Assembly (NCBI GenBank): GCA_019058365.1
Contig: JAHPZE010000003.1
Span: forward strand, 192,001 to 256,000
Direction of reading: 5' to 3'
From: Promethearchaeota archaeon
GTDB lineage: Archaea; Asgardarchaeota; Lokiarchaeia; Sigyniarchaeales; SOKP01
Length of the DNA stretch: 64,000 bases
In this document: positions 27,547 to 36,535 of the stretch, in pieces
Layout of the letters: the number at the start of each line of letters is the position of its first letter
Position numbering within the stretch: the stretch's first letter is position 1
Program-made: the position numbers and the translations under genes
The notes under the pieces: model-generated
What the model saw: the letters and a program-made list of their open reading frames with translations, nothing else
Databases searched by the model: none
Told to the model about the DNA's origin: nothing

Positions 27547-28503
27547 ATGAATGGTTCAAAAGAATTAAATAAAATCCTATTTTGTGGTTTAGAAAATGGT
27601 GGAAAAACTTCAATTTTGCTATTATTAGATAAAAAATTTAGTTTATTACCTGTAGTTAAACCAACTATAAAAGCAAAAAGAACCTTCTATACAAACTCAT
27701 TATTGGGAACCTCAATTGCCCGTTGGGATTTAGGTGGTCAAAAAAATTATAGAAAAATATATTTGGGTAATAAGAGCAAATATTTTACAGATATGCAATC
27801 AATATTCTATGTTATAGATATCCAAGCACCTAAAAAATTTGAAGAATCATTAAAATTTCTTAAAGATATTATTAATATAACCTCAGAGTCACATCCTGAA
27901 AATTTTCAGTTATTAATATTACTCCATAAATACGATCCTGACATAAAAAATAAGAAAGAAACTTTAGATCATATTAATTACCTAGAAAATATAATTTCAT
28001 CTACCATTAAGGAAGTTAAGTTTTCTATTTTTAAAACCTCAATATATGATGAACCAAGTCTATTGAAGGCTTTTTCTGATGGTGTTTTTTATGCAACACA
28101 TAAATCTAAAATGTTTGAAACTTTATTGAAAGAATATATGGGTAAAACTTACAATAGTTCTATGCTTCTACTTGATCAAAATTGCTTTATAATTGCTAGT
28201 AGAACCACAAATGAAAGTTATCAGAAAATTTGTGAAGCTATTGCTCCAAGATTAACTCAAGCATTAGAAAAATTAGAGGAATGGGATATAAATACAATTG
28301 ATATTGTAACAAATATAGAATTTCCAGAAAAACAATCAGAATTCCAAAAAGAGGGAATAATCTTTCTTAGAAAATTAGATATAAATAAAACGAGATTTTA
28401 TTTAATCGCACTTTGTTTAAATAAAAAAGTGAAAATTAAATCATATGAATATTTACCATTGTTAGCAAATAATTTAAAAAATTTACTAGAGAGTTTTGAT
28501 TAA
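27547..28503 (+). CDS. Rag/Gtr-like small GTPase with C-terminal roadblock-like domain
   Basis: G1 GLENGGKTS, G2 PT, G3 DLGGQ, G4 HKYD, G5 TSIYD; C-terminal SMLLLDQNCFIIAS roadblock pattern. Confidence 0.85.
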   Translation: MNGSKELNKILFCGLENGGKTSILLLLDKKFSLLPVVKPTIKAKRTFYTNSLLGTSIARWDLGGQKNYRKIYLGNKSKYFTDMQSIFYVIDIQAPKKFEESLKFLKDIINITSESHPENFQLLILLHKYDPDIKNKKETLDHINYLENIISSTIKEVKFSIFKTSIYDEPSLLKAFSDGVFYATHKSKMFETLLKEYMGKTYNSSMLLLDQNCFIIASRTTNESYQKICEAIAPRLTQALEKLEEWDINTIDIVTNIEFPEKQSEFQKEGIIFLRKLDINKTRFYLIALCLNKKVKIKSYEYLPLLANNLKNLLESFD

Positions 28504-28684: not shown

Positions 28685-29878
28685 ATGATTGTAAGATCTA
28701 ATGTGAATAAATATTATGCAGGGCCTAAGGCTCTATTTGACTCAGATTATATTCCCCCCCACATATTATATAGAAAAAAAGAAGAAAATTCCCTCTTTTC
28801 GATTCTAAATGACTCAATTTCTGATGAGTTTAATCTCAATATAATTTATCAAGGAATTAATGGTATTGGAAAGAAAGTAATAGTTAATAAAGTATTGAAT
28901 GATCTATTAAACCAAAATAAAGATTTCGTTAAAATTAATAAAATTTGTGTGGATTGTAAAAAAAAAACCCCAGAAGAATTAATTTTTTTATTGTTAACCA
29001 AAATAAATGGATTATCAAATCTAAACTTTGATGTTCGATACGTATTAAATTCAGAGATATCTCACTTATGGAATATGTTTAAATTCATTTGTAGTAAAAA
29101 TGATTCTCATTTATTTTTTATATTTAATAACATCGAATATTTAGAACCCGAAATTTTTAAAAAGTTCTTACAATTTGGCAAAGAATCGAATATAACTCTA
29201 ATATCTACTGTAAATAAAATTATACAACCAGGAACAATGGAATTATTCTCTGAATTTGATTTTAAAAAAAAATTGAATTTTTATAATTATCAAGAGCTTT
29301 ATTCTATTCTTAAACAAAGAGTATTACTAAGTTTTTCACATGAAATAGATAGAAACCTAATTAGATATATAACAGATTTAATCTGCGAGCAATATGTACC
29401 AGTTCCGGGTAAAGGAATTGAAATCCTTCGAGATTTATATCCAATATTAAAAAACAAAAATACTTTAGGAAATTTTGAAGTATTAGATATTTGTCAAAAT
29501 GAATTTGATTCTTTTCAAATTTCTGATGAGTTTAGCATGATTAATTATCTTTCTGAAGAAGATATATTAACAGTAATATTTTTAGATAATTTTTCAAATT
29601 ATTTTACTAGCAAAAATAAATATTATATTTCTATAAAAGAATTACACGAATTATATGAAATTTCTTGCGAAAATTTGGAATATGAAAAAAATATTAATGA
29701 ATTTTGTAAAATAATTGAAGAACTTATGAATATTGGAGTTATAAAGCCATCAAAAAGAACAATTCATAAAAATTGTACTCATGAAAGTTTTAATGGTGTA
29801 AATTATGATTCCTTCTTTATATTAATGAATCCTAAACAAATAAAGGTAATTATTGATGCAATTTTTAGCCAGTGTTAA
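28685..29878 (+). CDS. Divergent Cdc6/Orc1-family AAA+ protein with degenerate ATPase motifs
   Basis: LFDSDYIPPHILYR..E, QGINGIGKK, VDC, Y..QELYSILKQR, C-terminal wHTH (ELY...C...F..IIEELMNIGVI). Confidence 0.8.
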   Translation: MIVRSNVNKYYAGPKALFDSDYIPPHILYRKKEENSLFSILNDSISDEFNLNIIYQGINGIGKKVIVNKVLNDLLNQNKDFVKINKICVDCKKKTPEELIFLLLTKINGLSNLNFDVRYVLNSEISHLWNMFKFICSKNDSHLFFIFNNIEYLEPEIFKKFLQFGKESNITLISTVNKIIQPGTMELFSEFDFKKKLNFYNYQELYSILKQRVLLSFSHEIDRNLIRYITDLICEQYVPVPGKGIEILRDLYPILKNKNTLGNFEVLDICQNEFDSFQISDEFSMINYLSEEDILTVIFLDNFSNYFTSKNKYYISIKELHELYEISCENLEYEKNINEFCKIIEELMNIGVIKPSKRTIHKNCTHESFNGVNYDSFFILMNPKQIKVIIDAIFSQC

Positions 29879-30049: not shown

Positions 30050-33000
30050 TTGACTCATATTAAAAAAATTTCTATGAGTGGTTTCAAATCTTTTGGAGAT
30101 CGAACAGTAACTATCAAACTTTCAAGCGGATTCACATGCATCGTTGGACCAAATGGGGCAGGTAAATCTAATATAATAGACGCCCTATGTTTCTCGTTAG
30201 GTAGGTTAAGCAAAAAAACTATGAGAGCAAAAAGTCTAGAGGATCTAATCTTTGCTGGTTCACGAGGAAAAAATCCCTCCCAAAGAGCTTCTGTTACATT
30301 ATATTTTGATAATTCTGATAATGTTTTTCCAGGAGTGACTGGTGATTTTGAGATTACTCGTGTTATCAAGAGGGGTGGTGGTGGGGGATATAAAATGAAT
30401 GGAAAAAAAGTCACTCGCCAACAAATACTTAACGCTTTAGCCGCAGCAAATATTGATCCTGATGGTAGTAATCAATTCGTATTACAAGGAAAGATAGTCG
30501 AATTAACACATATGAATCCTGAAGATCGTAGAAAATTTATTGAGGAATTAATAGGACTTCAAAAATACGATGAAATGAAGGATGTTACTTTAAAAGAATT
30601 AGAAAAAGCAGAAAGAGATTTAGGACAATTTGAAGCAATCTTCAAAGAAGTATCCACCCAACTGAAAAAAGTTGAAAAAGAAAAAAATGATGCTTTAGCT
30701 TGGAAAGAATTGGATGAACAAATAAATTTTTTAAACTCACAGTTAATTGCCTTGAAAATTTCAAAATTAAGAGAAGAGGAAGATGAACTAGAAAAAAAAG
30801 TTGAAGTTTCTTCAAAAATCGTTGAAGAACTGCAAGAAAAAATAAACCGGCAAGAAGATGTATTAAAACAAGAATCTCTTGTTATGGATAATATCCAAAA
30901 AACTATTACTGACAAAGAAAAAGAAAGAGAGCAAATAACCGAAAATATAACTCAAATAAAAACTCAAATATCTTCAAGTCAAACGACTTTAGATTTAGAT
31001 AAAAAATCTATCGATAAATTAACTAAAGAAATTGAATCCTTAGAAAGTCAACAAATGAAACTTGAGGAAGGACAGACTTTTGATTCATTAATAGAAAGTG
31101 CATCAAAGGAAATTTCAGAAAATGAAGATCAGATTGAAGAAGCTAAAAAAGAAATTGAAAAGAGGCAACAAAACCAAGCTGAACTAGACCTTAAAATAAA
31201 AAATAATGAAGATGAAAAATCCCTTTTTAAAGCAGAAATATCCAAAATACAACAAAGTGTATCATCTAATAATGCTCAAATTAAGGTCTTAAGAGGAAAT
31301 GTAAAAAAAAATGAAGAAAAGAAGGAAAAATTAGAAAACGAATTACAAAGGCTAAAAAAAGATGCTGAAAGTATCGATGAGGCTATTGAAGCAACTAAAA
31401 AAGCAGAATCAGAAATTAGAAATAGAATAAACGACTTAAATATCAAAATTTCTAAAGAAAATCAAAATCAAAAAGATCTAGAAAATAATATTAACTCCAT
31501 CCAATCAGAAAAAAATCAATTAAATTCTAAATTGGCAAATTTTCAAGCTACCTTATCCTCTATAAGTACAGAAATTAAAATGAATCGTGAAAACATACAA
31601 GAATTAAATGAAAAGAAAACGTCTATAGAGGAAAAGATTACAGATTTAAGTAAAGGTAAAGATGCTGAAAAAGCAGTAAAAGAATTACTGAGTGAAAATG
31701 AAACAATTAATAAAGATTTAATCGATTTAAAAGCAAAATTAAAACAAGAAAATTCAGTCTATAGGAAGAATGAACAAGATTTAGAATTATTGAAAATGAA
31801 GAAATATTCTTGTGAATCAGAAATCAGTGATAATAATGCAAAGATTGATAATATTAATACAGAACTAAAAATTCTTACAAAAGAATTAACAACATTGGAC
31901 CGAGAAAAGAATAATTTAGCGTTGCATGTAGATACCTTAAATAAAAATCTTACAGATATTACAAGTTCCACTGAAAAGTTTATAATTAAAAAGGATAATG
32001 TACAAAGACGTTTAGAGGATCTTTCTCAAGAAAAAGAAAATTTAATAAAAAAAATTGACTCTTCTGAGGAAGAGTACGAGAAAAATACAAAAGATATTAC
32101 AGGAATTCTCCAAATTTTAAATATGCTCACCCAGAATATTAATATCTCAGTTGAATCTATTAAGGGTAATATACAACAATCGAATGCAGAGGCAATTGAA
32201 TCTTCAGCAGAAGATTTTAAAAAGTATATATTAGATATCATTGATATTATGAAAACAGTAGAGGATATTGGTGAAGATACAGATAAATCTACTGAAATGA
32301 CAGAAATGCTAAGCTCTATTATGCAAACTTTAAAAATGTTCACAGATAATGCTGATGACACAATTAATCAATTAATCGATAAAGTAAAAGAATCCGCCGA
32401 CATTGAAGTACAAAGTTCGACCTCTACATTTGATAGTTTTGTTCAAGATTTAATGGAAATTCTCGAAAATGTATATCTTTCTTTAAGAAAACTAACTATG
32501 TCTAAAAGTCAAGAACTATACAAACAATTGGAAGATATTTCAGATACTATTAAATCTCAAACCGATGATTTTAACAAAATTGAGAATCAATTAACTGAAA
32601 GTAATATCCAAGAAAAACACTTATCTGAAAATCTTTCAGTATATAATAAAAGACTTAATGAAATTGATAAAAGAAATACTGAATTAACTGAAAGAATTAA
32701 AAAAGGAGAAAACGAGATTAATGAAAGAGAGAAGATAATCAAGAACAGACAATCAGAAGCTAACACCTTGGATAATGATATAGAGAAATTAAAAGAATTA
32801 AAGGATACATATTGGGATAACCTTTCTACAATTCAAGATGGTATTGATAAAAAACAAAAAGACTCAGAAAATCTGAGAGAAAAATTACAAGAATTGCATG
32901 GAATTCAGAATTTATTTGATAATATTGCTGAAATCGATGATAATATAGAAAAATTGAATAGCACTATTGGAGAAAAGAAAAATTTAATTATAAATACAGA

Positions 33001-34501
33001 AGAAAATATTAAAAATATTCAAGAAGAGCAAAACTCATTACAAAAAAAGATTGATGACCTTGTTCTAAAAAAACAGAATTTCTGGGAAATAACAGAGAAA
33101 TTTCGAAAGCAAATCGAGGATGAAAATAAAGCGCTTGAAGATATAATGGATCGCTTAAGAGCGCTTGAAAATGTAATGAGGATTATCAACTCTATTGAAG
33201 ATATTAAAAAAGAAAATAGTGATGCTAAAAATAGCGTTGAAACTTGCTTAAAGGATATTGAAGGATTGAATTCTCAGGTTGAGGAAATCCAAAAGAATGT
33301 AGATCAAAAACAAGAAGTAATAGATTCTTTAAGAAATGAAAAAATAGAAGAGTTAGAATCACAGAAAGCTGCCCAGAAGAAATTAAACAAATTGAATAAA
33401 GATTTACAGAAATCTCAAGGGAAGTTGAATGAGTTAAATAAAAATAAAGAAAGAGAACAAAAAATTATTGGGTTACATCAAGATATAAAAGATACGGAAG
33501 AACAGATTGAATCAATAATAAAAGAATTAGGTAATTTTAAAGAAATTTTAGATAGTGAAAATGAAAAGAAAAACGAGAAGCAAAAGGAAATTGATAAGTT
33601 TACACAAGAAAAAGATGAATCATGGAAAAAGCAAAAACAATACCAGAAAATTATAACTGACTTAAAATCAGATCTCTCTATGGAGAATTCTAAAATCAAC
33701 AATTTCGAATCAAAGAAGATAATGTGCACCGATCAAATTGAAACTTTATTCCAACGCTCTAAAGAATATGGATCATTACCTCCAATAACTGACGGACTTT
33801 CAGAACCAGAATTACAATCAGATATTGTAGAAAAAACGCAGAAGAAAAAAGCTCTTGAACCTGTGAATTTAAAAGCAATTGAACAATATGACACTGTAAA
33901 AGAAAGATTTGATGAGATAGATATGAGACGACAAACAATACAAAGAGAAAGGAAATCAATTCTGGACGCCATTGATAAAATTGAATTAGAAAAGACAAGA
34001 ACATTTATGAAAGCATATCACGAGATAAATAGAGAATTTAGTAGGATTTTTCAAAAGCTTAGTCCTGGTGGTTCAGCAAAAATGATTTTGGATAGACCAG
34101 ATAAGCCATTTGAAGGAGGTGTTAGCATAGAAGCAAGACCAAGAGGTAAAAAAATCAGTTCATTAGAAATATTAAGTGGTGGTGAAAAAACATTAGTAGC
34201 TTTATCTTTTATATTTGCTATTCAAGAATTTTATCCTGCGCCGTTTTTCGTTTTAGATGAGATCGATGCAGCCCTCGATGGTCCTAATGTCCACAGAGTC
34301 TCCATGCTGCTGAGAGAATTCTCCACACAATCACAATTCTTGGTTATAAGTCATAGAGAAGAGAATATTGTAAACGCAGATAGGATATACGGTGTATCCA
34401 TGCAGCAGTCTGGAATTACAGATATTTTTAGTGTTAATTTGGAGGACGAGGCAAAACGCATTTTAGAGCTTGAAGATATCAAGCCAAATATTACAGAATA
34501 A
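30050..34501 (+). CDS. smc: SMC-family ATPase (condensin-type heads) lacking a canonical hinge
   Basis: GFKSF, Walker A GPNGAGKSNIIDA, Q-loop FVLQG, PVNLKA, LSGGEK, VLDEIDAALD, ISH; about 1100-aa coiled coil. Confidence 0.93.
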   Translation: MTHIKKISMSGFKSFGDRTVTIKLSSGFTCIVGPNGAGKSNIIDALCFSLGRLSKKTMRAKSLEDLIFAGSRGKNPSQRASVTLYFDNSDNVFPGVTGDFEITRVIKRGGGGGYKMNGKKVTRQQILNALAAANIDPDGSNQFVLQGKIVELTHMNPEDRRKFIEELIGLQKYDEMKDVTLKELEKAERDLGQFEAIFKEVSTQLKKVEKEKNDALAWKELDEQINFLNSQLIALKISKLREEEDELEKKVEVSSKIVEELQEKINRQEDVLKQESLVMDNIQKTITDKEKEREQITENITQIKTQISSSQTTLDLDKKSIDKLTKEIESLESQQMKLEEGQTFDSLIESASKEISENEDQIEEAKKEIEKRQQNQAELDLKIKNNEDEKSLFKAEISKIQQSVSSNNAQIKVLRGNVKKNEEKKEKLENELQRLKKDAESIDEAIEATKKAESEIRNRINDLNIKISKENQNQKDLENNINSIQSEKNQLNSKLANFQATLSSISTEIKMNRENIQELNEKKTSIEEKITDLSKGKDAEKAVKELLSENETINKDLIDLKAKLKQENSVYRKNEQDLELLKMKKYSCESEISDNNAKIDNINTELKILTKELTTLDREKNNLALHVDTLNKNLTDITSSTEKFIIKKDNVQRRLEDLSQEKENLIKKIDSSEEEYEKNTKDITGILQILNMLTQNINISVESIKGNIQQSNAEAIESSAEDFKKYILDIIDIMKTVEDIGEDTDKSTEMTEMLSSIMQTLKMFTDNADDTINQLIDKVKESADIEVQSSTSTFDSFVQDLMEILENVYLSLRKLTMSKSQELYKQLEDISDTIKSQTDDFNKIENQLTESNIQEKHLSENLSVYNKRLNEIDKRNTELTERIKKGENEINEREKIIKNRQSEANTLDNDIEKLKELKDTYWDNLSTIQDGIDKKQKDSENLREKLQELHGIQNLFDNIAEIDDNIEKLNSTIGEKKNLIINTEENIKNIQEEQNSLQKKIDDLVLKKQNFWEITEKFRKQIEDENKALEDIMDRLRALENVMRIINSIEDIKKENSDAKNSVETCLKDIEGLNSQVEEIQKNVDQKQEVIDSLRNEKIEELESQKAAQKKLNKLNKDLQKSQGKLNELNKNKEREQKIIGLHQDIKDTEEQIESIIKELGNFKEILDSENEKKNEKQKEIDKFTQEKDESWKKQKQYQKIITDLKSDLSMENSKINNFESKKIMCTDQIETLFQRSKEYGSLPPITDGLSEPELQSDIVEKTQKKKALEPVNLKAIEQYDTVKERFDEIDMRRQTIQRERKSILDAIDKIELEKTRTFMKAYHEINREFSRIFQKLSPGGSAKMILDRPDKPFEGGVSIEARPRGKKISSLEILSGGEKTLVALSFIFAIQEFYPAPFFVLDEIDAALDGPNVHRVSMLLREFSTQSQFLVISHREENIVNADRIYGVSMQQSGITDIFSVNLEDEAKRILELEDIKPNITE

Positions 34502-34607
34502 TGAAAATATTTCATAGAGGTAGGTAATAATTTCAAAAAATGAACACAATTCAGTTGAAAAATATAATTTTAAAGAATGGACTGTAAATGATTTAAGGGA
34601 ATTTGCA

Positions 34608-35537
34608 TTGAAAAACAATATTAAAATTCCTTCTAAATCTAAAAAAAAGGATATTATTGAATTACTTCAAAATATAACATCTAATCCTGATTTCGTTGAT
34701 CGATCCTTAGAAGAAGAAATGAAAGAGCCCGAAGTAGAATTAATTGCTGAGTTTGATGATGATGAGGATCTTGCATTATTGAGAAAAGAGAAAACTGAAT
34801 TGAAATTTTGGCAAAAACCACCCTTTTCAAGTCTTTTAGATACAGAATTAGCAAAAGAATCCGATATAGCTTTTTATGATTTATCAAAATTAGTAGAAAC
34901 TTTTTTTGATAATATGCTACATGAAGAATTGATTAATTATAAGATTTCTGGAATTGCACTTAAAACATCGGCATCTTTACATCATTACAAAATTTCAAGT
35001 ATAATAAAAGAAGAGGAACAAATTCAAAAAAGAGAAGAATTAGAAAAATTCAGACAAAGTCATTCTAGATCAATCCCAAAAGCATTACCTCAGCCAATCT
35101 CCCCTAAAATGCAAATTGCTACCAAAGATGAATTATTTGATGCTATGCGGTCAGCTATTATTGAAGTTATGCAGAATCAAGAAAAACTAAAAAGAAGAAG
35201 AATGCGAAGAGAAGAACTTAAAGATCAAAAGATCCAAATGAAGTCTAAAGCCCAATTACCCAAAGAACTCTTAAAACATATTAGTGGAAAGGAGCAAACA
35301 GTTGAAGAATTGCATGAATCATGGTATAATCGAATAAAAGCTACAATCAATTTAAACAATAAAGAGACTAGTATTTATGATTTAATGAATATTATTAAAA
35401 ATGAAGAAAAAAGTAGTATAGGGAGGAAGTTTTCATTAGTACGTATGTTTTTAGCTTTATTGTTTTTATCTACTGGAAGTAAATTAAACTTATCTCAAGA
35501 GGAAGATTTCCAAAATATTTTAATCGATATTAGTTAA
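34608..35537 (+). CDS. scpA: Kleisin ScpA
   Basis: PPF..LLD...YDLSKLV..F...INYKISGIAL..SA.L...K N-domain; C-terminal FLALLFL...KLNLSQEEDFQNILI wHTH; lies between smc and scpB. Confidence 0.85.
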   Translation: MKNNIKIPSKSKKKDIIELLQNITSNPDFVDRSLEEEMKEPEVELIAEFDDDEDLALLRKEKTELKFWQKPPFSSLLDTELAKESDIAFYDLSKLVETFFDNMLHEELINYKISGIALKTSASLHHYKISSIIKEEEQIQKREELEKFRQSHSRSIPKALPQPISPKMQIATKDELFDAMRSAIIEVMQNQEKLKRRRMRREELKDQKIQMKSKAQLPKELLKHISGKEQTVEELHESWYNRIKATINLNNKETSIYDLMNIIKNEEKSSIGRKFSLVRMFLALLFLSTGSKLNLSQEEDFQNILIDIS

Positions 35538-35578
35538 AAGTAAATCCTATAAAAATTATTATTAAAAGTGGTGAGAAT

Positions 35579-36535
35579 TTGGAGGAAAATTCGGATGAAA
35601 AAACTAACGAGAAAATAGAAAATAATACTGAAGATGTTCTTAATAAAGAAAATATTGAAGTAATTGAAGAAGAAATTAAAGATGTAGAAAATGTTGTTAA
35701 AAAAGAATCTAAACAAATAGATTCAAATGTATCAATAAAAGAAATTGAAGGCGAGATCATTGAGGAGCTAGAAACAGAATCAGAAGATATTGAAAAACAA
35801 GAATTTATTGAAGAATTAGATCAAGAACCAGAAAATCTACTAATCGAAGAATTTATAGTTGAGCAAAATGTTGAAGATACAACAAATATGCATGAAGATG
35901 CGTTAGAAGGCACAATAATTGATGAAAGCGTATTAGAACTTGATGAAAAAGCTCTTCATCGAAATTTTATTGAAGCGGCTCTCTATGCAGCTGGAGGGCC
36001 TTTAACAATAGAAGAGCTATCAAATAAATTAGAATTTCCTAAAAAAGAAGTTGAGAATTTAGTAAATGAATTAGCTTTTGGTTATTTAGAACGTGTTACA
36101 TCACTAATCATTGCACAAATTGGAGATAGGTATCAAATGCAGATTAGACCAGAATATACGGAAAAAATATCAAAATTTGCTAAAGGAGGAGCAATAGCGG
36201 AAAGATATTTAAGAACTTTAACAATTATTGCTTTAAAGCAACCGATCTTAAAATCAATGGTTATAAAATTAAGGGGTAGTGGAGCATATGAGCATGTAAA
36301 GTACCTTTTAGATAATGAATTCATAAACGCTGTAAAAAAAGGAAGATCTCAAGAATTAACTACTACAGATAAGTATGCTGAAATGTTTGGGTTGCCAAAA
36401 GATATAAGACAAATGAAACAAGTTATGGTTACTCAATTGGGACTAGAAGAAAGGGGTAAAAGTGAGTCTTCAGGTGAAATTGAGAAAGTGGATCAAGGTG
36501 AACCTATGAGTGAAAATGAAGAAGGAGAAGAATAA
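35579..36535 (+). CDS. scpB: KITE subunit ScpB with long acidic N-terminal extension
   Basis: IEAALYAAGGPL, YQMQIRPEY, LRTLTIIALKQPI, KLRG, TTDKYAEMFGL. Confidence 0.92.
   Translation: MEENSDEKTNEKIENNTEDVLNKENIEVIEEEIKDVENVVKKESKQIDSNVSIKEIEGEIIEELETESEDIEKQEFIEELDQEPENLLIEEFIVEQNVEDTTNMHEDALEGTIIDESVLELDEKALHRNFIEAALYAAGGPLTIEELSNKLEFPKKEVENLVNELAFGYLERVTSLIIAQIGDRYQMQIRPEYTEKISKFAKGGAIAERYLRTLTIIALKQPILKSMVIKLRGSGAYEHVKYLLDNEFINAVKKGRSQELTTTDKYAEMFGLPKDIRQMKQVMVTQLGLEERGKSESSGEIEKVDQGEPMSENEEGEE

Follow-up and report, generated by a model that had tools for sequence, protein, structure and literature searches.

The hinge is viewed as universal in SMC-kleisin machines, in which it serves for dimerization, offers a surface for DNA binding and has been proposed as a gate for DNA, and the length of SMC arms is thought to be tightly tuned. 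The locus described here, from a genome of the Lokiarchaeia, encodes an Smc of 1483 residues in which no hinge is detected, next to genes for a kleisin and for a ScpB-type kite protein. It raises the question of whether such a complex can dispense with the hinge, and of what stands in its place. The reading proposed here is that smc, kleisin and scpB form the operon of a condensin-type complex specific to one lokiarchaeal lineage, which is likely (probability of about 0.72). It is very likely that a hinge-less Smc-kleisin-ScpB complex is real and functional. There are no experimental or expression data for either statement.

The smc locus and its products

The smc gene lies at 30050-34501 on the forward strand (positions are those of the window, the whole stretch of 64,000 nucleotides that was analysed; the span includes the stop codon), as do the two other genes and all the features given below. 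Its start codon is TTG, in register with the methionine of the orthologues. The kleisin gene follows after about 25 nt. The open reading frame listed for this ScpA-like protein occupies 34608-35537 and starts with TTG; the full conserved frame spans 34527-35537 and begins at about 34527 with ATA/ATT, and its upstream part encodes a SAP/HeH/Ish1-like motif (Ish1, E 1.2e-5). The scpB gene (35579-36535) comes 41 nt after the kleisin gene. The surrounding genes are housekeeping genes (tRNA synthetase, PFL, GTPase).

The N-terminal half of the ATPase head (residues 1-170, 30050-30559) carries Walker A and the Q-loop and matches SMC_N over residues 3-138 (E 1e-34). The C-terminal half (residues 1291-1483, 33920-34501) carries LSGGE, Walker B, the D-loop and the H-loop, and is supported by motifs, HMM and PDB matches. 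All these motifs are legible in the translation, and the head columns are almost invariant in 109 orthologues (entropy of 0.1-0.7 in the N-terminal half and 0.1-0.5 in the C-terminal half). When the long Smc is used as a query, PDB Smc heads match with E-values from 7e-121, for the Pyrococcus Smc head 5xei, to 1e-94, and eukaryotic SMC2, SMC1 and SMC3 with E-values of 1e-57 to 1e-45. The head is nearest to the Smc of Pyrococcus and B. subtilis and to SMC1-4, not to the SMC5/6 type, and the partner is of the ScpB type.

The Pfam matches of the protein are limited to SMC_N and P-loop families. TIGR02168 gives 620 bits, which exceeds its cut-off of 567, and TIGR02169 gives 622 bits, below its cut-off of 729; the whole-protein match to these models is broken into 4-6 pieces. 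The models for ASRP (168 vs a cut-off of 300), Rkd4 (21.5 vs 860) and Rad50 (110-117 bits vs 700-1087) all remain under their cut-offs. By its heads, arms and partners, the long protein is a condensin-type Smc, although it lacks a hinge.

ScpB is firmly identified by PF04079 (E 4e-32) and TIGR00281 (93.5 bits, above cut-off). It is a long form, in which an acidic N-terminal extension of about 125 residues is added to the ScpB winged helices. The kleisin taken as a single protein has only weak C-terminal matches to ScpA and Rad21 (E 0.003-0.01), and PF02616 is matched by 8 of 21 orthologues. A profile made of 21 rows matches the ScpA N-domain (6ivh, E 1e-3) and then the C-terminal winged helices of Scc1/ScpA (6qpw, 1w1w, 5h66, 5xg3), in the correct order. 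The kleisin gene adjoins the long smc wherever this was checked, and adjoins scpB in all 28 of the fetched loci that contain scpB. Its identity is likely; the individual E-values behind it are weak (1e-3 to 7e-2), the profile and synteny add to them, and no binding data are available. The source genome, which is 100% complete by marker genes, carries one ScpB and one ScpA-like gene. The first-pass annotation, made from sequence alone, had described condensin-type heads (which held, from the ATPase motifs, TIGR02168 and the PDB matches) followed by kleisin and kite genes (which held too, with weaker profile evidence for the kleisin).

The complex resembles canonical Smc-ScpAB (B. subtilis, Pyrococcus; Pfam PF02463 with PF06470, PF02616 and PF04079) in its head motifs, its full arm segments and its adjoining kleisin and ScpB kite. 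It differs by the absence of a hinge, by a length of 1483 vs about 1160-1210 residues, by arm modules of about 97 residues and a duplicated acidic tip, by the SAP/HeH-like N-terminus of the kleisin and by the acidic extension of ScpB.

The region that replaces the hinge

The hinge domain PF06470 has no match in the long Smc at E<=1 in a Pfam search, and the alignment of the apex to 25 canonical hinges with hhalign has a probability of only 0.05%. An HMM of canonical Smc covers residues 2-507 (HMM 2-507) and 970-1470 (HMM 683-1182); the hinge positions of the model, 508-682, are unaligned, and 462 helical residues (508-969) occupy their place. There is no CXXC hook in the middle of the chain, the five cysteines being at positions 30, 47, 588, 1066 and 1226. 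Residues 600-900 include three glycines only, and no proline is present between residues 171 and 1243. The AlphaFold2 (AF2) model of residues 590-950, based on a 74-row alignment, consists of two unbroken long helices joined by a turn of 4-5 residues, without strands, and the model of residues 664-826 again shows two helices, a turn of 4-5 residues and no strands. Foldseek (against the PDB) and VIA-align return only generic long helical hairpins (cytoplasmic domains of chemoreceptors, dynein stalks, pieces of Smc, MukB and Rad50 arms) and no specific relative; a Z of about 10 is the background level for helical models in wide structural searches. The hinge of the long Smc is replaced by an all-helical insert of 462 residues, made of extra coiled coil and an acidic hairpin tip, whose fold is that predicted by the model.

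It could be objected that divergence has made an existing hinge unrecognizable, or that the gene is an artefact of assembly or annotation. Nothing was found in support of this explanation, which leans solely on the universality of hinges. It is opposed by the all-helical models and by the failure of both HMM and profile-profile hinge matches. Independent assemblies, three of them single-contig genomes, have yielded more than 100 orthologues of full length; chance or misassembly is therefore excluded as the source of the hinge-less frame, and the objection as a whole is all but ruled out within the reach of these computational tools.

The arms comprise a canonical and an additional part on each strand. 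The N strand matches the whole N-arm of canonical Smc over residues 171-507 (30560-31570; canonical HMM, hhalign E 8e-25), and the C strand matches the canonical C-arm over residues 970-1290 (32957-33919; canonical HMM, hhalign E 7e-23). The extra coiled coil of the N strand (residues 508-675, 31571-32074), not found in canonical Smc, starts where the hinge would and is built of modules of about 97 residues; AF2 predicts it as helical, with a pLDDT of about 94, from residue 590 onward. The extra coiled coil of the C strand (residues 813-969, 32486-32956) is delimited by AF2, the HMM gap and the repeat self-match. The N strand matches itself at a shift of 97 with E 3e-22 (5e-7 for the reversed control) and the C strand at a shift of 98 with E 3e-20 (2e-7 for the control). 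The repeat signal of canonical Smc arms is no better than that of the reversed control (3e-13 vs 3e-14), and the modules of about 97 residues are therefore specific to the long Smc.

The strands of the arm are about 572 and 543 residues long, compared to about 335 in canonical Smc, i.e., about 1.6 times longer or about 230 more residues per strand; without the tip, the arm amounts to about 490-505 residues. The lengths of natural prokaryotic Smc arms fall in modes up to 515 residues, with a period of about 91 residues (PMC5344682). The AF2 hairpin and the Foldseek and VIA matches to Smc and MukB arm fragments are those of an antiparallel, intramolecular arm.

The tip itself (residues 676-812, 32075-32485) is a conserved, acidic, helical element in the place of the hinge, defined by entropy, composition, AF2 and the lack of similarity to hinge profiles. 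It is a tandem duplication: unit 1 (residues 678-737, 32081-32260) and unit 2 (residues 749-808, 32294-32473) align in hhalign over 60 columns with a probability of 97.5% (E 6.9e-12), compared to 0.3% at most for control segments of the arm. They are separated by an acidic apex turn (residues 738-748, 32261-32293; AF2 loop 743-747), the only non-helical stretch of both AF2 models. Conservation is higher in the tip than in the arm on either side (entropy of 0.4-0.9 vs 1.3-1.8 in 109 orthologues), and residues 676-846 are net acidic (D+E about 20% vs K+R 9%). The tip has 2.5-3.2 conserved apolar positions per heptad, compared to 1.2-2.0 in most arm windows, and their coherence as a single seam is poor. 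A compact four-helix bundle was considered for the isolated tip and rejected, since AF2 kept the extended two-helix hairpin. In the long construct the pLDDT is 65-77 in the tip and 94 in the arms; the low value may reflect a missing partner or merely an uncertain model, both of which are possible.

The tip domain is also found in a family of head-less proteins of about 1040 residues in genomes of family f2 of the same order, in one or two copies and with a lysine-rich tail; this head-less protein was not found in the source genome or in family f1. Its stronger conservation compared with the arms, its internal duplication, its many conserved apolar positions and its presence in the head-less family suggest that the tip is a functional module.

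The claims of the first-pass annotation that the chain has no hinge, no CXXC and a helical middle (PF06470, hhalign, cysteine positions, AF2), and that its arms are longer, were thus all borne out. A hinge match, a central alpha/beta fold or the lack of orthologues with the same apex had been named beforehand as refutations. None was encountered, and orthologues with the same apex are plentiful.

Distribution and relation to other SMC complexes

The long hinge-less design is present in 67 of the 75 sampled genomes of the order (60 of 68 in f1, 7 of 7 in f2), with smc frames of about 1475-1510 residues and the kleisin and ScpB genes alongside; all frames counted with the tip range from 1475 to 1535 residues. 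The tip is absent from the other Asgard families sampled, save for two outlier bins, and matches only 33 clusters (at 50% identity) among 1.84 billion proteins. The earlier suggestion of an Asgard machine must consequently be narrowed to one order of the Lokiarchaeia. Within that order the long Smc is nearly universal, single-copy and in fixed synteny, whereas canonical Smc is patchy: the canonical hinged protein is kept in genera g3, g6, g8, g9, g10, g12 and g13 and was not found in g1, g2, g4, g5, g7 and g11. Genomes matching the cultured Lokiarchaeum ossiferum and Prometheoarchaeum syntrophicum carry both proteins.

The canonical hinged Smc of the order (e.g., P0162; P0168, named P. syntrophicum; P0169, named L. 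ossiferum) belongs to the same superfamily, occurs in the same organisms and has an adjacent ScpB. It differs by its length (1192-1206 residues), its strong hinge (E 5e-32), the size of its ScpB (196-197 residues) and its absence from the source genus. The long Smc is a distinct paralogous complex, beside a canonical Smc with its own short ScpB in related genera, and it is the only Smc-ScpAB-type complex in the source genus. No strong hinge match exists in the source genome. The first-pass annotation had proposed a search for a second, hinge-bearing SMC there; only one is present, a divergent third paralogue with small neighbour genes of its own in a separate operon. SMC5/6-related archaeal SMC complexes and a duplication of SMC complexes in TACK and Asgard archaea are known, and Asgard genomes with multiple SMC-kleisin-kite operons, and hints of a third complex, have been described (PMC8665677; bioRxiv 10.1101/2024.01.07.573240); the divergent second operon of the source genome is of this kind. 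The heads of the long Smc are of the canonical type, and the hinge passages of these two studies do not mention hinge loss or long arms.

In a tree of the heads, which does not include eukaryotic sequences, the long Smc proteins group apart on a long stem, and the place of their clade among canonical archaeal Smc is unresolved. A recent duplication of the resident canonical Smc within the order was rejected, as the AU test rejects a joint clade (p 1e-6); the tested group was chosen after the tree had been seen, and the stem of the clade is long.

The complex could alternatively be no chromosome organizer at all, and act as a Rad50-like repair tether or as a defence or plasmid-restriction SMC of the Wadjet or Lamassu kind. 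In favour of this, the hinge-less apex and long arms recall Rad50/SbcC and RecN, in which heads are also carried on an antiparallel coiled coil with a helical apex and no globular hinge; the PADLOC models mad3, LmuB and JetC match the long Smc; and the cultured relatives retain a canonical Smc as well. Against it, the PADLOC and Rad50 matches reflect generic head and coil similarity and are far under the Smc scores (62 bits at most for JetC). The long Smc has no CXXC, no nuclease gene and no Mre11/SbcD gene adjacent, and has kleisin and kite partners instead. It is nearly universal across the order as a single-copy gene, its synteny is fixed, its neighbours are housekeeping genes, and it is the sole ScpAB-type complex in genera devoid of canonical Smc. 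Identity with Wadjet JetC or Lamassu LmuB was rejected, the matches being only partial ones to head or coil and the kleisin and ScpB having no PADLOC match. This alternative is very unlikely.

Marine actinobacterial SMC homologues with SMC-type heads and coiled coil, and neither hinge nor zinc hook, were reported in 2025 (PMC12153180). They differ from the protein described here in that they are bacterial and known from ocean metagenomes only; their partner genes are not described in the relevant text. No description of the long hinge-less Smc was found in the full-text literature searched, which left out subscription journals and supplementary texts.

Proposed mode of action and significance

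The preferred reading is that of an ATP-driven chromosome organizer, which would entrap DNA or extrude loops. The kleisin would connect two Smc chains at their heads, and their tips would pack together as a helical bundle at the opposite end; the resulting rod or ring would be about 80 nm long rather than about 50 nm. Closure by tip-to-tip self-association is as likely as not: the inference has no basis beyond conservation and composition, and AF2 shows a monomeric hairpin. The first-pass annotation had proposed that the chains dimerize through another helical apex or have an open or monomeric tip. The data are compatible with this, apex dimerization being only inferred. Since the tip is net acidic, DNA binding as in hinges is unlikely, and a different mode of action is therefore possible. 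The DNA-binding role of the hinge may have been dropped, or may have shifted, e.g., to the SAP/HeH-like N-terminus of the kleisin.

The tip could also function without self-association. The chains would then be joined at the heads only, or the tip would dock on another protein or fold back onto the head module, giving an open V or a ring closed by a partner. This is supported by the AF2 runs, which give a self-contained hairpin with two homologous units packed within one chain, and by the head-less protein, a possible partner in f2. However, that protein was found neither in the source genome nor in f1, the family in which the tip shows its strongest conservation, and the conserved apolar positions are more numerous than a two-helix seam requires. 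Moreover, Smc-ScpAB is established to work by topological entrapment of DNA, of which an SMC-kleisin complex with an open apex would be incapable. A tip that does not self-associate is unlikely.

A bolder interpretation is no more than possible: the duplicated tip would have taken over the whole role of the hinge, as a novel and autonomous module for closure or tethering. It would zip the two arms into a ring, or link complexes tip to tip in the manner of Rad50 hooks and bridge distant DNA. The preferred reading gains plausibility from B. subtilis Smc with a Rad50 zinc hook in place of its hinge, which has been described as a functional chimera, provided that the arm length conforms to the periodic pattern (PMC5344682). 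That chimera is artificial and bridged by metal, whereas the long Smc is natural, has no cysteine motif and has lengthened arms.

A complex that, across one order, keeps the heads, kleisin and kite and has a helical hairpin in place of the hinge is a natural experiment on which functions of the hinge are dispensable and on how arm length scales. The system is tractable, as the genomes matching both cultured Lokiarchaeia hold the hinge-less and the canonical complexes, and the tip is small enough to be expressed separately. If the bolder interpretation is true, many Lokiarchaeia would run a hinge-free complex with arms of about 80 nm as their only condensin-type motor, and SMC-kleisin machines of a lineage close to eukaryotes would be shown not to require the hinge.

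A long Smc with heads but no hinge

The smc gene (30050-34501), whose TTG start aligns with the methionine of the orthologues, encodes a protein of 1483 aa. It is followed, in the same orientation, by a 309-aa ORF (34608-35537) and by scpB (35579-36535, 318 aa), in a window with a G+C content of about 27-30%. According to Pfam, the long Smc contains SMC_N and P-loop families, the second product gives weak matches to ScpA (E 0.003) and to the C-terminal domain of Rad21_Rec8 (E 0.01), and the third is firmly matched by ScpB (E 4e-32). Among the NCBIfam models, TIGR02168 scores 620 bits (cut-off 567) and TIGR02169 622 bits (cut-off 729), with matches split into 4-6 pieces, and the scores of the Rad50, ASRP, RecN and arcadin models are all far under their cut-offs. 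The complete set of ATPase motifs is visible in the translation. The solved structure closest to the heads is that of Pyrococcus Smc (5xei, E 7e-121), followed by B. subtilis Smc and, after bacterial Smc, by eukaryotic SMC2, SMC1A and SMC3. The condensin-type heads and the adjoining kleisin and KITE genes described in the first-pass annotation are thus supported by the motifs, TIGR02168, 5xei and the Pfam and profile matches.

Two other ORFs lie upstream of smc. The nearer one (28685-29878 (+), 397 aa, 171 nt 5' of smc) matches no Pfam family at E ≤ 0.001, and is probably a mere neighbour because it is absent upstream of the long smc gene in the closed genome G213. The other (27547-28503 (+), 318 aa) is a small GTPase that matches the Gtr1/RagA family (E 4e-24). 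GTPases of this eukaryote-like kind are typical of Asgard genomes.

The long Smc has no hinge. The Pfam hinge family PF06470 gives no match, even at E ≤ 1, as the first-pass annotation had expected. A profile of canonical archaeal Smc, built on about 100 sequences, aligns with the long Smc on both sides of the middle (positions 2-507 with residues 2-507, and 683-1182 with 970-1470), but its hinge positions, 508-682, have no counterpart; residues 508-969 (462 aa) occupy their place. When a profile of the apex based on a 74-row alignment is compared with 25 canonical hinges, the probability of a match is 0.05%. AlphaFold2 predicts that residues 590-950 form two unbroken helices, residues 591-742 and residues 748-949, linked by a turn of five residues; pLDDT is about 94 for the parts that belong to the arms and 65-77 over residues 680-820. 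The tip alone (664-826) is again predicted to be a two-helix hairpin (mean pLDDT 83), and fold searches return generic long hairpins only. The middle of the protein contains no CXXC motif, residues 600-900 include three glycines and residues 171-1243 no proline.

One strand of the arm spans residues ~171-742 and the other residues 748 to ~1290, which gives lengths of ~572 and ~543 residues versus ~335 in canonical Smc (~1.6 times longer). Assuming a coiled-coil rise of ~0.15 nm per residue, we calculate an arm span of ~80 nm, compared to ~50 nm for canonical Smc. The absence of a hinge and of CXXC, the all-helical middle and the longer arms had all been proposed from sequence alone, and all held. 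The arms contain modules in tandem. When each strand is aligned with itself, off-diagonal matches appear at shifts of 97 (N strand, E 3e-22, 311 columns) and 98 residues (C strand, E 3e-20), versus 5e-7 and 2e-7, respectively, at best for reversed-sequence controls. The same test applied to canonical arms gives nothing beyond their own control.

Kleisin and ScpB partners

The second gene can be assigned to the kleisins, although every single E-value is weak. Indeed, the first half of a profile based on a 21-row alignment of orthologues matches the N-terminal domain of ScpA (6ivh, E 1e-3), its last 70 positions match the C-terminal winged helices of Scc1/ScpA (6qpw, 1w1w, 5h66, 5xg3, 5xns, 4i99), and 8 of the 21 orthologues individually match PF02616. 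The kleisin gene adjoins the ScpB gene in all 28 fetched loci that contain the latter.

Conservation of the kleisin frame extends 5' to ~34527, about 80 nt ahead of the listed TTG and immediately past a stop codon, to the position where the orthologues have their methionine. No ATG, GTG or TTG is present at this frame start (window 34503-34650), where the codons are GTA ATA ATT. With the upstream residues, a SAP/HeH/Ish1-like motif is complete (Ish1 E 1.2e-5), so that either a non-canonical start codon is used or the motif is truncated; both are possible. The orthologues from family f2 of the same order have a lysine-rich tail where this motif sits.

ScpB carries an N-terminal extension of ~125 residues (35579-35950) very rich in Glu and Asp, which is lacking in the ScpB (196-197 aa) encoded beside canonical Smc in related genomes.

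Distribution and relation to other SMC complexes

At least 170 relatives of the apex are found in a protein collection clustered at 90% identity, nearly all of 1474-1487 aa and none with a hinge annotation; among 1.84 billion proteins, the apex matches only 33 clusters at 50% identity. Among 301 genomes of the phylum, the tip was found in two families of the window's order (60 of 68 and 7 of 7 genomes, frames of 1475-1535 aa) and otherwise only in two outlier bins, both outside the order. Two other families of the order have the kleisin as well. The long Smc gene adjoins the kleisin gene in the single-contig genomes G312 and G307, which match, with 100% identity over 400 residues, proteins named for Lokiarchaeum ossiferum and Prometheoarchaeum syntrophicum, respectively.

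One outlier (G193, family f24) has a long hinge-less copy that is 31% identical (C70:3571-4314), and the other (G205, family f7) has three fragments on three contigs, up to 78% identical. These copies may reflect mis-binned contigs or horizontal transfer. No strong hinge match was found in families f24, f7, f16 and f22 either.

A hinge family search detects a canonical Smc (~1200 aa, hinge E ~1e-33) as well in genera g3, g6, g8, g9, g10, g12 and g13 of the order. G213 has a short ScpB (196 aa) after its canonical Smc (hinge E 5e-32), and the kleisin and the long ScpB after its long Smc; the long set is a complex paralogous to the canonical one. A strong hinge is found in none of the 21 genomes of the window's genus; there, and in g2, g4, g5, g7 and g11, there is one weak match only. 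By marker genes, the window's genome is 100% complete; it has a single ScpB gene and a single ScpA-like gene, and a strong hinge is missing. Its sole hinge match (24-29 bits) belongs to a 1155-aa SMC of divergent sequence encoded on a different contig (C34:282532-285879, or L010:6479-9946, (-)), which is all that the proposed check for a second hinge-bearing Smc returned. The gene of this divergent SMC is preceded by a 416-aa ORF and followed by ORFs of 215 and 171 aa (L010:5818-6465 and 5286-5801) without Pfam families. This operon probably represents the second kind of archaeal complex known from published work, which is related to SMC5/6, but the assignment is tentative.

The head-domain phylogeny proposed earlier was computed with 40 sequences (quick IQ-TREE, mixture model). 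The long Smc proteins form a single clade (support 100) with a long stem, outside a well-supported clade that includes the order's canonical Smc, but their placement among archaeal Smc is unresolved. A clade uniting the long and resident canonical Smc is rejected by an AU test (p 1e-6), with the caveats that the grouping is post hoc and the branches are long.

Duplicated SMC-kleisin-kite complexes are known in TACK and Asgard archaea (PMC8665677; bioRxiv 10.1101/2024.01.07.573240), and hinge loss is not mentioned in the relevant passages of these papers. For marine Actinobacteria, one report describes a clade of 'hinge-less' SMC proteins (PMC12153180). As for the suggestion of an undescribed machine, no description of the Lokiarchaeal long Smc was found in the literature searched, which excludes most subscription journals.

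The tip and its proposed role

The tip (residues 676-812) is acidic (D+E ~20%, K+R 9% over residues 676-846) and, relative to the arms, enriched in Ile, Met, Phe, Tyr, Ser and Thr. Its conservation exceeds that of the coiled coil on either side, and it has 2.5-3.2 conserved apolar positions per heptad, versus 1.2-2.0 in most arm windows. The tip consists of a unit duplicated in tandem: residues 678-737 can be aligned with residues 749-808 (probability 97.5%, E 6.9e-12; arm controls ≤0.3%), and the AlphaFold2 hairpin places these homologous units antiparallel, packed against each other.

A head-less protein of ~1040 aa in f2 genomes (L013:5997-9122 (-) in G213; similar ORFs in G282, G089 and G285) has one or two copies of the tip domain (tip profile E 1e-20 to 4e-29), together with a middle part rich in beta structure and a histone-H1-like tail rich in Lys and Thr. 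Pfam gives nothing significant for it, only a weak HC2 match (E 0.012), and no such protein was found in the window's genome.

The Smc-kleisin-ScpB set is conserved and under purifying selection; its ATPase motifs are intact and a hinge is lacking. Closure without a hinge is plausible, since B. subtilis Smc with the Rad50 zinc hook in place of its hinge has been termed a functional chimera, and the distribution of natural arm lengths has several modes, reaching 515 aa, with a periodicity of about 91 aa (PMC5344682). The first-pass annotation had proposed dimerization through a different helical apex, or else an open or monomeric tip: the helical apex held, and the association of the tips, which would close the far end, remains an inference. 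It is based on the conservation of the tip, its excess of apolar positions, its duplicated, antiparallel-pairing unit and the occurrence of the module in another protein. Since DNA binding is unlikely for an acidic tip, the contacts made by hinges would probably be lost or replaced, possibly by the SAP/HeH-like N-terminus of the kleisin. The long-Smc set is the sole condensin-type complex of the window's genus; by inference, and without demonstration so far, it would organize the chromosome in the manner of Smc-ScpAB.
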